A stretch of DNA of 36,019 nucleotides, from contig JAGGZD010000127.1 in NCBI GenBank assembly GCA_021162245.1, forward strand, positions 1 to 36,019, given 5' to 3'. Positions within the stretch are counted from its first letter, which is position 1. Each line of letters begins with the position of its first letter. Source of the stretch: Dehalococcoidia bacterium. GTDB lineage: Bacteria; Chloroflexota; Dehalococcoidia; GIF9; AB-539-J10. The translations under genes and the position numbers were made by a program. The notes under the pieces were generated by a model, which worked only from the letters and a program-made list of their open reading frames with translations, made no database searches and was not told the origin of the DNA. Below, piece by piece: positions 21,729 through 34,812 of this stretch.

Positions 21729-21911
21729 TTAAATAAGCATTTCACCTTTGTTATCAATACTGACAACACTATGCTCAAAATATATTGAATCCAGTCCACA
21801 AGCCTTGGGCCCAGGGGCCACCCCCTTACTTAGTTTACCTGACATGACTGCTAGAACCTTGCCGCTTCGTTCCATAATTGCCATTACCTCAGGATATTTT
21901 GTAATTATCAT
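21729..21911 (-). pseudogene. map: Internally deleted methionine aminopeptidase remnant
   Basis: Lies at the canonical map position between adk and infA; N-terminal MIITK...IMERSGKVLA...VAPG....LD joined to C-terminal FEHSV.....G.E.L. Confidence 0.8.
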
Positions 21912-23915: not shown

Positions 23916-24359
23916 TTATATCCTCTCCACTTTCCCCCCAGCGGCGACGATCTTCCTTTCTGCCGCTGCAGAGAACTTGTTAGCTCTAACTACCAAAGAG
24001 TGTTGAACATCACCACCACCAAGAATTTTAGTGGGGCGGTTAAGAGAATTAATCGATCCCGTTTTCAGTAGCTCTTCCGCGTTTACCTCACTACCTGAAG
24101 GGAAACTATTGAGCTCACCTACATTAACAATATTATATTCAGTCTTAAAAATATTATTAAAACCCCTTTTCCTTGGCAAACGCCTTATAAGGGGCAATTG
24201 GCCCCCTTCGAATCCAATGCGCACACCACCACCAGAGCGGGATTTCTGCCCTTTACACCCACGCCCTGAATAAGTGCCATGCCCACTGCCATCACCCCTA
24301 CCCACACGTTTTCTATTGTGCTTAGCACCCAAAGGAGGTTTTAATTCATTCTGTTTCAT
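23916..24359 (-). CDS. rplO: 50S ribosomal protein L15
   Basis: RVGRGDGSGHG, KGQKSRSGG, GFEGGQLPL.RRLP..RGF. Confidence 0.98.
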   Translation of the reverse strand: MKQNELKPPLGAKHNRKRVGRGDGSGHGTYSGRGCKGQKSRSGGGVRIGFEGGQLPLIRRLPRKRGFNNIFKTEYNIVNVGELNSFPSGSEVNAEELLKTGSINSLNRPTKILGGGDVQHSLVVRANKFSAAAERKIVAAGGKVERI

Positions 24360-24894
24360 TCACATCCTCCTCTTGAATTTCAGGGGGAAGCTCACCCTCA
24401 GTCTCAACTTGCCCAGCTTGCCTTAGATTTGACAAGGCAAGCATGGTTGCCTTAATTACATTAACCTGATTGCGACTACCCAGAGATTTACTAATAATAT
24501 CCTTTATGCCTGCCAATTCAAGCACTGCTCGAACAGCATTACTAGCAACTATACCAGTACCCGGCGCCGCCGGCTTGAGCAAAACCTTAGATGCCCCAAA
24601 CTTGGCTAAAATCTCATGGGGAATAGAGGTGTCAGCGACAGGTACTTCAATCAATTTTTTCCGCCCTGCAGCACTTGCTTTATGAATTGCATCAGGAACA
24701 CCAGCAGCTTTAGCTACACCAATCCCCACATGTTTTTTGCCATCGCCAACCACCATTAAAGCCCTGAAACGAAGTCTTTTCCCGCCCTTAACTACTTTAG
24801 TTACGCGGCTAAGTTTTATTAACTTCTCTTCCAACTCCAGCTCTGGAATTTCAATTCTAGCTCTCCTGCCAACCACTTTAGTAACTGCTTTCAT
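24346..24894 (-). CDS. rpsE: 30S ribosomal protein S5
   Basis: RVTKVVKGGKR, VVGDG, KPAAPGTG, RAVLELAG, KSLGS.N. Confidence 0.97.
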   Translation of the reverse strand: MKAVTKVVGRRARIEIPELELEEKLIKLSRVTKVVKGGKRLRFRALMVVGDGKKHVGIGVAKAAGVPDAIHKASAAGRKKLIEVPVADTSIPHEILAKFGASKVLLKPAAPGTGIVASNAVRAVLELAGIKDIISKSLGSRNQVNVIKATMLALSNLRQAGQVETEGELPPEIQEEDVNETE

Positions 24895-29882: not shown

Positions 29883-30707
29883 CTATTTCCTCCGCCTGAC
29901 AATCATTTTATCTGATACTTTACGACGCCGCGTTTTGTACCCCAATGCTGGCTTTGCCCACGGCGTTTTAGGATGTTTTAACCCTATCGGTGATCTACCT
30001 TCACCACCCCCATGAGGATGATCTCGAGGGGTCATAGCAGAACCTCGCACCGTAGGGCGTATACCCAACCACCTTTTACTTCCGGCCTTGCCGAGTTTCA
30101 TGTCTCCGTGGTTAATATTCCCTATCTGCCCTATAGTAGCACGACATCTCTCGTGAAATTTACGCAACTCACCTGAAGGCAACCGAAGCACTACATATCC
30201 ACCTTCTTTGCTCATAACCTGAGCAGCTGCTCCAGCACTGCGAACAAGCTGTCCTCGTTTGCCAGGAACAAACTCAATATTGTGAACCAGCGTCCCTGGA
30301 GGAATTGCACCTAGCGGTAAGGTGTTCCCAGGTTTTATCTCAACTTCGTCGCCAGCTATTATAACATCACCTACCCCGAGACCCAAAGGAGCAAGAATAT
30401 AACGTTTTTCACCATCCACATAGTAAATTAAGGCAATCCGAGCTGACCTATTAGGGTCATATTCAATGGTAGCTACCTTGCCAGGAATGCCAATCTTATC
30501 CCTCCTAAAATCAATAATACGAAGCTTACGCTTACTTCCTCCACCATGATGACGCACTGTTATTACACCACGATTATTGCGCCCCGCTTTCTTTTTCAGG
30601 CGAACAAGCAGGGATTTCTCAGGAGCTACCTTGCTTAGCTCTCCAAAATCCATCGCAACCTTACCCCTCCTGCCAGGAGAAGTTGGTTTATAAGTCTTTA
30701 ATGCCAT
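29883..30707 (-). CDS. rplB: 50S ribosomal protein L2
   Basis: [28 protein letters not shown]...DHPHGGGEG; ATG 30707. Confidence 0.98.
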
Positions 30708-30709
30708 TT

Positions 30710-30805
30710 TTATTGATGCTTCCTTTGCCAACGTGTTTTCTTGAGGAGTTTCTTATGACGATGCTTTGACATCATCTTCTTTCTCCATTTAACTACTGAA
30801 CCCAA
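30710..30805 (-). CDS. bS22 / mS38-like (AURKAIP1/COX24 domain) small basic ribosomal protein (not in ORF track)
   Basis: TTG start with AGAGGTG RBS; translation [31 protein letters not shown] resembles actinobacterial bS22 ([25 protein letters not shown]..., recalled); stop is 2 nt before the rplB ATG. Confidence 0.85.
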
Positions 30806-30828
30806 AATTCCACCTCTATAATAATAAT

Positions 30829-31113
30829 TTAAACACCTTCAAAAAGAGTAATCTTATTTCCCGGCTCCAACCCAACTATAGCTTTTTTCCAGGATGGACC
30901 TGTCACCTCTCGTCTGCCCATTCGCTTCGTCTTCCCACGAACAATTATCACATTAACCTTGGTCACCTTCACGTTAAAAGTCTTTTCTACCGCCTCTTTA
31001 ATCTGATGTTTTGTAGCTCCATTAGCTACCTTGAAGACATATTTGTCCTCTTCCTTAAGCAAAGTAGTTTTTTCTGTAACCAAAGGGCGTCTCAACACTT
31101 CATAAAGATGCAC
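30829..31113 (-). CDS. rplW: 50S ribosomal protein L23
   Basis: RPLVTEK, Y.FKV...ATK.QIKEAVE..F.VKV..VN, WKKAIV. Confidence 0.98.
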   Translation of the reverse strand: MHLYEVLRRPLVTEKTTLLKEEDKYVFKVANGATKHQIKEAVEKTFNVKVTKVNVIIVRGKTKRMGRREVTGPSWKKAIVGLEPGNKITLFEGV

Positions 31114-32376: not shown

Positions 32377-32685
32377 TTATAACCTGATATCTATTTCCAC
32401 TCCAGAAGCCAAATTAATTTGGGTCAAAGCGTCTATAGTTTTAGAAGTTGGTTGTAAAATATCAATAAGCCGTTTATGAGTGCGAATTTCAAATTGCTCT
32501 CTCGAATCCTTATCAATATTCGGAGAGCGGATGACACAAAATTTTTCTATATGCGTAGGCAAAGGTACCGGCCCAACAATCGTAGCTCCAGTACGTTCCA
32601 CCGCTTCTGCTATTTGCATCGTCGCTTGATCAACTAATCTGTGATCGAAACCTTTAATTTTAACACGGACTTTCTGAGCGCTCAT
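32377..32685 (-). CDS. rpsJ: 30S ribosomal protein S10
   Basis: [28 protein letters not shown]. Confidence 0.98.
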
Positions 32686-34767
32686 TTATTTATTCACCCT
32701 GGTGCTAGCCATAATCTGCTCGCTTAAATTAGCAGGTACTTCTTCATAACGATAAAATGCCATAGTGTAAGTTGCTCTACCCTGGCTGAGTGACCTCAAA
32801 TCGCCAACGAAGCCAAAAGTTCTTACTAGAGGGACAAAGCAACGAACAACGCTGGAATCTTTGTAAGATTCAACCACCTCAATACGAGCCCTTCGGGAAT
32901 TCAAATCACCGATGACGTCTCCCAAAAATTGAGCTGGTGTCATTATTTCCGCTTTCATAATTGGCTCCAGGATAACAGGCTTAGCCCTAGCTACAGCCTT
33001 CTTTGTAGCCATCGAGCCTGCTATTTTAAAAGCCAGGGCCGAAGAGTCAACATCGTGGAAGCTGCCATCATACAAAATCGCCTTAATATCCACCACAGGA
33101 TAACCCGCCAGGCGCCCGCTTTGCAAAGCCTCTTTAACCCCAGTTTCCACAGCTGGAATAAATTCCTTCGGCACGACACCATTGCGAGTTTGGTCACAAA
33201 ACCCGAAGCCACTACCTCGTTCTCCAGGTTCAAGCTTAATCCAGACATGTCCATACTGCCCTTTACCACCCGACTGTCGAACAAATTTTCCCTCCGCTTC
33301 TACAGGTACAGTGATTGTCTCTTTATAAGCTACTTGAGGCTTGCCAGTTGTCACTTTTACCCCGAATTCATGAGCTACACGCTCTATCAACACTTCAAGA
33401 TGCAATTCACCCATTCCTGAGATAAGCATCTGCCCTGTCTCCGCGTCGCTATGAACTTTGAAGGTGGGATCCTCCTCGGCAAGCTTAGTTAAGGCACTAC
33501 CCAATTTCTCCTGATCAACTTTACTTTTAGGTTCTATTGCCATTGAAAGTACGGTATCAGAAAAATGTATTGCCTCAAAAAGCATCGGGGTAGCAGCATT
33601 ACAAAGAGTATCCCCTGTCGACGTCTTCCTGAGCCCCACAGTAGCAACAATACTACCCGATTCAGCCTCCCCAATCTCCTCACGATGATTAGCATGCATA
33701 AGGTATAGCCTACCCAAATGCTCTTTTACCCCTTTTGTCGCATTAAAAATTTGCGCTCCAGTTTTCACATTACCCGAATATACACGCAGGTAGGTTAATC
33801 TACCCATAAACGGATCAGAAACAACCTTAAAAGCCAAAGCTGAAAGAAGATTTTCATCGTCTGCTCGGCAAAAGATTTCCTTCCCATTTTTAGAATTGAT
33901 AGCGCAAACAGGAGGAACATCCAAAGGCGAAGGAAGATAATCTACAATAGCATCAAGTAACGGTCTGATTCCTTTACCTTTTAGCGCACTACCACAAAGA
34001 ACAGGCACCACACGGTTAGCTGCAGTCAATCTCCTTATAGCTGCTTTAAGCTGAGAAGTAGAAATTTCCTCACCCTCAAGATAGCTAAGCATGATCTGGT
34101 CATCATCTTCAGCTAGTTTCTCAATAAGCGCTCGACGATAGCTGGCCACGGTATCCTTATCACTTTCCTGTATAGCACTTTCTATCGGCATCAGCTGAGG
34201 ATCATCTGCGAAATGAACTGCCCTATTCTCCACGAGATCAACAATTCCTTTGAATGACCTCTCAGCACCTAATGGAATTTGCACTGGCAAGACTCTGGCT
34301 CGCAGTCGCTCCTCAATCATGGATATTGTACCAGGGAAATCAGCACCGGTCCGATCCATCTTATTAATAAAACAAATCCTCGCCACATTATACTTATCTG
34401 CTTGACGCCACACAGCCTCCGATTGAGCTTCCACACCAGCTACAGCATCAAGCACTACAACACCACCATCCAATACCCTCAGGCTGCGTTCCACCTCAGC
34501 AGCGAAATCCACATGTCCAGGCGTATCAATAATATTGATGCGATGTTCTTTCCAATAACAAGTAGTAGCTGCCGCCGTGATGGTAATACCACGCTCTCGC
34601 TCCTGCTGCATCCAATCCATCACAGTGGTTCCCACATCCACTTCACCAATTTTGTAAGTACGCCCTGTATGGTAAAGAATTCTCTCAGTAGTCGTGGTTT
34701 TACCAGCGTCTATGTGAGCAATAATTCCTATATTTCGTATATCCTCTAAAGGGAAAATCCGCGACAT
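32686..34767 (-). CDS. fusA: Elongation factor G (start ATG 34767 or up to 13 codons upstream)
   Basis: [60 protein letters not shown]. Confidence 0.98.
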
Positions 34768-34812
34768 AATCTTACTCTTTACCTCAACCATTGTTTTAAC
34801 CGTCATGCTGCC

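Follow-up and report, generated by a model that had tools for sequence, protein, structure and literature searches.

The stretch of DNA analysed here, which we call the window, comprises 36,019 nucleotides of contig JAGGZD010000127.1 (assembly GCA_021162245.1) from a Dehalococcoidia bacterium of the phylum Chloroflexota, and it has a GC content of 43.7%. According to Pfam matches, it holds a complete str-S10-spc-alpha run of genes on the minus strand, in the order rpsL, rpsG, fusA, rpsJ, rplC, rplD, rplW, ORF, rplB, rpsS, rplV, rpsC, rplP, rpmC, rpsQ, followed by rplN through rpsI. The ORF between rplW and rplB has 31 codons and codes for the protein called bS22 below. The features of this junction are listed in the direction of transcription.

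30829..31113, minus strand: rplW (uL23), the upstream neighbour (Pfam Ribosomal_L23, 108 bits)
30806..30828, minus strand: 23-nt spacer between the rplW stop and the bS22 start, devoid of terminator-like or promoter-like sites on this strand
30811..30816, minus strand: Shine-Dalgarno-like GAGGTG, which ends 5 nt before the TTG of bS22
30710..30805, minus strand: bS22 coding sequence, 31 codons plus TAA (TTG start at 30805-30803, TAA stop at 30712-30710)
30708..30709, minus strand: 2-nt spacer between the bS22 stop and the rplB ATG, as read from the sequence
29883..30707, minus strand: rplB (uL2), the downstream neighbour, with its ATG at 30707 (Pfam Ribosomal_L2_N and Ribosomal_L2_C; TIGR01171, 411 bits)

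An earlier note on this DNA had described a basic 31-codon ORF between rplW and rplB, preceded by a strong ribosome-binding site and ending 2 nt from the start of rplB. Translation of the minus strand from 30710 to 30805 gave an identical protein, in which 13 of the 31 residues are Lys or Arg and three others are His; GAGGTG was found 5 nt upstream of the TTG codon, and two bases were counted between the stop and the ATG of rplB. The gap given in that note as 120 bp measures 121 nt when counted between the stop of rplW and the start of rplB. The gene had also been called unannotated, which is incorrect since the exact 31-residue protein is already recorded in NCBI nr. The sole Shine-Dalgarno-like stretch of rplB, AAGGAAG, lies within the bS22 coding sequence (30725-30719), 11 nt from the rplB ATG. 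In a consensus scan, the coding strand of the rplW-rplB interval showed no promoter-like or terminator-like site. Over the window, the scan detected 12 promoter-like sites for 12.8 expected from shuffled sequences and 10 terminator-like sites for 6.5 expected (sd 2.5), counts that are not above those of the shuffles. The window annotation contains no signal peptide or export gene beside bS22.

Elsewhere in the window, fusA is followed by rpsJ with a 1-nt junction (32377-34806), and the str and S10 operons are not separated by a tuf gene. The rpsE (S5) and rplO (L15) genes overlap (23916-24894), with no rpmD (L30) between them. A 60-codon ORF is located between adk and infA on the minus strand (21729-21911), and its product has no Pfam or NCBIfam match. 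That position is often occupied by map in other bacteria.

Judged by its sequence, the ORF is bS22, a member of a known family. It matched the NCBIfam equivalog NF047430 (ribo_bS22) with 56.4 bits (E 2.3e-15) over positions 1-31 of 31, the curated cut-off of this profile being 34 bits. The earlier note had proposed a search with the AURKAIP1/COX24 family as a check; the corresponding Pfam profile, PF08213 (COX24_C), matched at 32.6 bits (E 7.4e-8) over profile positions 1-30 of 33, above its gathering threshold of 23 bits, and the bS22 equivalog scored higher. A six-frame scan of the window's own genome (1.49 Mb in 132 contigs, 92.9% complete) returned bS22 at 51.9 bits as the sole match, and hence as a single copy. 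Most relatives score higher than this, with a maximum of 66 bits. We also scanned 14 control genomes with NF047430. Only Corynebacterium glutamicum had a match over the cut-off, which fits the known distribution of the family, and the match in Bacteroides thetaiotaomicron was below the cut-off.

Solved ribosome structures gave concordant results. Among their chains, the window protein on its own matched bS22 of Cutibacterium acnes (8crx_X) with an E value of 7.6e-6 and the mycobacterial bS22 chains (5o5j/5o61 set) with an E value of 1.5e-5. With a profile built from 24 Chloroflexota bS22 copies, these values became 5.4e-12 and 2e-10, respectively, and mitochondrial mS38 chains were matched at 3e-6 to 1e-4. 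With two HMM libraries over cut-off and solved bS22 chains matched, the bS22/mS38-like identity suggested in the earlier note holds. Nine positions are invariant in the 24 Chloroflexota copies, namely M1, V4, K6, R8, H15, K19, K22, W26 and R28, and the N-terminal MGSV motif of the window protein aligns to residues 1-4 of the solved chains. Position 16 is Arg in the window protein, Lys in most relatives and Gln in the closest ones. It aligns with Lys16 of the Mycobacterium smegmatis protein, and the charge is kept in the window protein; the position is not invariant.

We determined whether the ORF is maintained among relatives. In a set composed of the window's genome and 40 relatives, bS22 was found over the cut-off in 40 of the 41 genomes, the lone genome without a match being 67% complete. 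In the best-scoring 20 of the 39 matches in relatives, the order rplD-rplW-bS22-rplB-rpsS on one strand was present at all 20 loci, and in three further relatives (G011, G021 and G025) bS22 adjoins rplB by coordinates. The ORF is thus kept in the rplW-rplB spacer of related genomes, which the earlier note had named as a test of its proposal.

Selection on bS22 is strongly purifying. For 21 copies embedded between rplW and rplB (19 distinct coding sequences, 171 pairs), pN was 0.103 and pS 0.892, giving a pN/pS ratio of 0.116. The variable codon positions of the embedded copies were third positions in 27 of 29 codons, first positions in 11 of 29 and second positions in 10 of 29. For codons 2-10 alone, pN/pS was 0.125, which indicates that the conserved protein begins at the TTG codon and not at internal methionines. 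The start codons of the 21 copies are TTG in 13 cases and GTG or ATG in four cases each, and 19 of them have a Shine-Dalgarno-like purine motif whose first base lies at -10 to -12. Sequencing data from elsewhere also contain the locus: a 282-nt contig from an independent DNA run of another study (X3) spans 30578-30859 with zero differences. Runs X1-X3, from vent-type samples in which the organism is present, are DNA only. None of the RNA runs contained this organism's stretch, six RNA runs matching only 0.07 of the sampled words. A 323-nt contig from RNA run X15 covers 30517-30839 with 19 differences; it stems from a relative and its library may contain DNA, and we take it as a weak hint of expression.

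We then looked at the genomic location of bS22 genes more broadly. In a sample of 301 Chloroflexota genomes, 63 had a bS22 match, over the cut-off in 55 of them, a tally that includes one genome flagged as unpublished (G209). Outside the window's class there are 52 bS22-positive genomes, and the comparison of gene positions rests on the 32 for which the place of rplB is known; the phylum tally of rplB includes G078, G209, G181, G305 and G261, all flagged as unpublished. In none of these 32 comparable genomes is bS22 beside rplB, the two genes being separated by more than 200 kb or found on different contigs. The bS22 match at G242:C1:17044-17130, from a different class of Chloroflexota, has an in-frame TAG.

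Within the class, 44 of 141 sampled genomes had a bS22 match, 38 of them over the cut-off, and the profile search detected none in the other 97. The gene is directly upstream of rplB in 14 of the 44 positive genomes and elsewhere in 30. The 14 genomes belong to the window's own family, a second family of its order and four families of other orders (f9, f78, f80 and f100). No bS22 was found in the nine genomes of the Dehalococcoides-like cultivated family, which are complete and of 1.4-1.9 Mb.

A bS22 profile scan with one genome per species yielded at least 50 loci. Among those listed, eight have the order rplW-bS22-rplB, two of them duplicating loci already counted, and all eight come from metagenome-assembled genomes (MAGs) recorded as Dehalococcoidia, Dehalococcoidales, Dehalococcoides sp. 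or Chloroflexota. The other 42 listed loci have no S10 gene within 1.6 kb of bS22; they include Anaerolineae, Nitrospirota, Desulfobacterota-type bacteria, Acidimicrobiia and other Actinomycetota, and Acidobacteriota. Clear bS22 homologues were seen in MAGs recorded as Nitrospirota/Thermodesulfovibrionales, Syntrophus/Syntrophorhabdaceae, delta proteobacterium NaphS2 and Acidobacteriota (L042-L044, L047, L048, L076 and others), phyla that go unmentioned for bS22 in the available portions of PMC10618245, PMC7797042, PMC10085706 and PMC10081302.

We inspected 100 S10 loci directly, leaving out L088, in which rplW is cut by the contig end. With bS22 present (27 loci), the gap between rplW and rplB measures 116-404 nt, with a median of 133 nt; in the 73 Chloroflexota loci that lack it, the gap is -10 to 424 nt with a median of 10 nt, 61 of these loci having gaps of at most 50 nt. 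Embedded copies of bS22 end 2 to 298 nt before rplB. We also analysed 14 loci with non-embedded Chloroflexota bS22 genes: proB and proA flank three of them, gap adjoins two and rpsU is near one, and the remaining ones have unrelated neighbour genes. The proB-bS22-proA order occurs in L022, L030 and L034 (genomes G420, G352 and G403) and bS22 is beside gap in L028 and L029 (G378 and G415), all of class Dehalococcoidia. The proB/proA and gap sites are recurrent alternative homes of bS22 in Dehalococcoidia, and its position within the S10 operon is peculiar to one Dehalococcoidia group.

Altogether, we consider it very probable that the ORF encodes bS22 as a single-copy gene of the S10 operon, with a ribosomal role deduced by homology. 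In the accessible parts of PMC10618245, PMC7797042 and PMC10085706, bS22 is described as a helical, highly basic protein buried among helices h2, h27, h44 and h45 of the 16S rRNA, with contacts to H67, H68 or H70 of the 23S rRNA, depending on the paper, that add an intersubunit bridge. By homology with these ribosomes, the 31-residue basic helix of the window would insert in the h2/h27/h44/h45 pocket beside the decoding centre, and it would also touch the 23S rRNA near H67-H70 to form an extra intersubunit bridge. According to the available text of a preprint (PMC10081302), Lys16 of M. smegmatis bS22 contacts the h44 backbone and shapes the aminoglycoside pocket of h44, and bS22 is dispensable for growth of that organism.

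The earlier note had called the product a real ribosomal component recruited into the core operon. Homology to solved bS22 chains supports the first part, its presence in the ribosome being predicted from that homology. In view of its dispensability in M. smegmatis and its lack of detection in 97 of the 141 class genomes, 'core component' is too strong a term. As for recruitment into the operon, it applies to part of the class, and the other Chloroflexota carry bS22 elsewhere or have no detectable copy.

The anatomy of the locus suggests how the gene might be expressed. As there is no terminator-like or promoter-like site between rplW and rplB on the coding strand, bS22 is likely to be co-transcribed with core ribosomal proteins and to share the transcriptional control of uL23 and uL2. 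Since its TTG start is weak and rplB follows after 2 nt, its translation is probably in step with that of the neighbouring genes. The position of the TTG codon, 23 nt after the rplW stop, and that of the stop codon, 2 nt before the rplB ATG, would allow translational coupling on both sides, and independent initiation at TTG may be weak. Translational coupling, proposed from gene anatomy, is the weakest step of the explanation, the distance to rplB varying from 2 to 298 nt among relatives.

That arrangement also brings up the idea that the ORF is a cis-acting upstream frame that sets rplB translation by termination-reinitiation, its peptide having no ribosomal role. The stop 2 nt from the rplB ATG, the distant Shine-Dalgarno-like stretch of rplB and the non-ATG starts of 17 of the 21 embedded copies would agree with such a device. 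However, an equally conserved peptide is encoded far from rplB in 30 of the 44 positive class genomes and in other phyla; the presence of the same peptide at unrelated loci in other Chloroflexota indicates that it is the protein, rather than the spacer, that carries the function. Moreover, the 2-298 nt range of distances means that tight coupling is not conserved, and selection acts on the amino-acid sequence, beyond the length of the frame. We therefore regard this possibility as very improbable.

We give equally little credence to the proposal that the peptide acts mainly outside the ribosome, for instance as a free basic peptide that binds RNA or has antimicrobial-like activity. Free C. acnes bS22 peptide inhibited bacterial growth and cell-free translation, as reported in the available part of PMC10085706. 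However, all solved homologues occupy the same 30S pocket in the portions of PMC10618245, PMC7797042, PMC10085706 and PMC10081302 that we could consult, the placement in the S10 operon argues for an output matched to that of ribosomes, and no signal peptide or export gene adjoins bS22. Finally, the short length of the ORF, its TTG start and the ease with which lysine-rich frames arise in A-rich DNA (window GC 43.7%) might suggest that a frame happens to be open in a somewhat long spacer and yields no protein, but this is refuted for practical purposes by the pattern of conservation, with two curated HMM cut-offs exceeded, an intact ORF in all 27 embedded loci extracted and in six further named MAGs, a pN/pS of 0.116 with synonymous sites near saturation, and a median rplW-rplB gap of 10 nt without the ORF versus 133 nt with it.

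We return to the very probable reading that the ORF is a bS22 gene, and to how it came to lie in the S10 operon. The embedded position is derived. In other Chloroflexota, bS22 either lies at a locus unrelated to this one or is not detectable. A quick maximum-likelihood tree was computed from the concatenated uL23, uL2 and uS19 sequences (100 rows, 461 columns, with SH-aLRT support only). All 27 embedded rows fell within one 63-row clade with a support of 95. Twenty-three of them, from the window's order and family f78, grouped together at 89, under the star threshold, and the other four lay in an unresolved comb. The 'embedded' label requires four changes at the fewest on this tree, and the well-supported branches force only one.

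The rplW-rplB junction has other occupants as well. Two f17 loci without a bS22 match, L120 and L159 (genomes G278 and G293), have rplW-rplB spacers of 83 and 98 nt. That of L120 contains a 20-codon ORF (1262-1321) that looks like the N-terminal half of bS22 over its first 14 residues, with no NCBIfam match at E values up to 10, and that of L159 contains a similar bS22-like stretch broken by a stop. By visual resemblance, the f17 spacer ORF may be a decayed bS22 copy. In a genome of family f112 without bS22 (G408), a 132-codon ORF at L137:895-1290 lies in a 424-nt rplW-rplB spacer, and its product has no Pfam match. The 152-nt spacer of L089 (G374) is largely a long inverted repeat. In L017 (G024), a further 298 bases separate bS22 from rplB, and they contain A/T-rich repeats as well as a GC-rich palindrome. 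These sequences suggest that the junction is also used by small mobile or structured elements.

A joint reading of these observations is possible, and we put it forward tentatively, as something rather less than probable. A single ancient insertion would mark a clade of several Dehalococcoidia orders, and the weak TTG or GTG start and the position of the gene would tie bS22 to the synthesis of uL23 and uL2, making it a constitutive and stoichiometric ribosomal protein in these small genomes. Sister lineages, including the Dehalococcoides-like family, would have lost or moved the gene, with a remnant in L120 and L159, and the junction would be a recurrent insertion site, as for the ORF of L137. 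If this is true, ribosomes that have bS22, that lack it and that lost it recently would form a natural series among close relatives.

This is not a new kind of protein: the family is already curated and the exact sequence is in NCBI nr. It is a member of a known family in a lineage-specific gene order. A search of article texts, mostly from outside subscription journals, found among the matches listed no mention of bS22 for Chloroflexota or Dehalococcoidia or inside an S10 operon; the papers listed for Chloroflexota use BS22 as a strain name. In the available portions of PMC10618245, PMC7797042, PMC10085706 and PMC10081302, bS22 is described structurally in Actinomycetota, Bacteroidota and Borrelia only. 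Our analyses indicate that it is widespread yet patchy in Chloroflexota (63 of 301 sampled genomes), with a gene that moves between loci. Its incorporation into the most conserved ribosomal operon in one Dehalococcoidia clade represents genomic-context evidence for a true ribosomal protein. The rplW-bS22-rplB order can serve as a simple marker of synteny in that clade, and the presence or absence of the gene forms a natural series. More generally, genes of 30 codons with non-ATG starts imply that 'empty' spacers merit a look. The understanding of how bS22 works is unchanged, and nothing mechanistically unexpected was found.

The closest characterized relatives of the window protein are the bS22 proteins of Actinomycetota, i.e. 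those of M. smegmatis (MSMEG_0945), M. tuberculosis and C. acnes (5o5j/5o61 and 8crx). They share with it an MGSV N terminus followed by a helix rich in Lys and Arg, and they belong to the same NCBIfam equivalog and Pfam family. With 33 residues against 31, they are also in the same length class. The window protein, from the phylum Chloroflexota, differs from them by W7, W26 and a His-rich centre (KHRHKK) in place of Lys/Arg, and by Arg instead of Lys at position 16. In addition, the Actinomycetota loci among the 42 listed without embedding all lack S10 genes within 1.6 kb.

The bS22 proteins of Flavobacterium johnsoniae (Fjoh_1533) and Borrelia burgdorferi (bb0822) are, in the consulted parts of their reports, similarly short, basic, single-helix proteins in the same 30S pocket, and bb0822 starts with GUG, its start being non-ATG like that of the window gene. 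Such small bS22 genes are easily missed, as stated in the available text of PMC7797042 and PMC10618245. In contrast, Fjoh_1533 and bb0822 are far more divergent in sequence from the window protein than Actinomycetota bS22, and embedding in an operon is not described for them in the available text of the same two papers.

For mitochondrial mS38 (AURKAIP1/yeast Cox24, PF08213), the C-terminal ~30 residues align with the whole bacterial protein (3j9m_A3, 6nu2_A3 and others), and mS38 and bS22 occupy the same rRNA pocket according to the accessible portions of PMC10618245 and PMC10081302. However, mS38 has an N-terminal extension, its solved full-length chains having 128-200 residues, and it is nuclear-encoded and imported. 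As for the operon itself, all eleven genes of the canonical S10 series, rpsJ-rplC-rplD-rplW-rplB-rpsS-rplV-rpsC-rplP-rpmC-rpsQ, are present in the window in this order and on one strand according to Pfam, and the single departure from the canonical arrangement is the bS22 gene between rplW and rplB.
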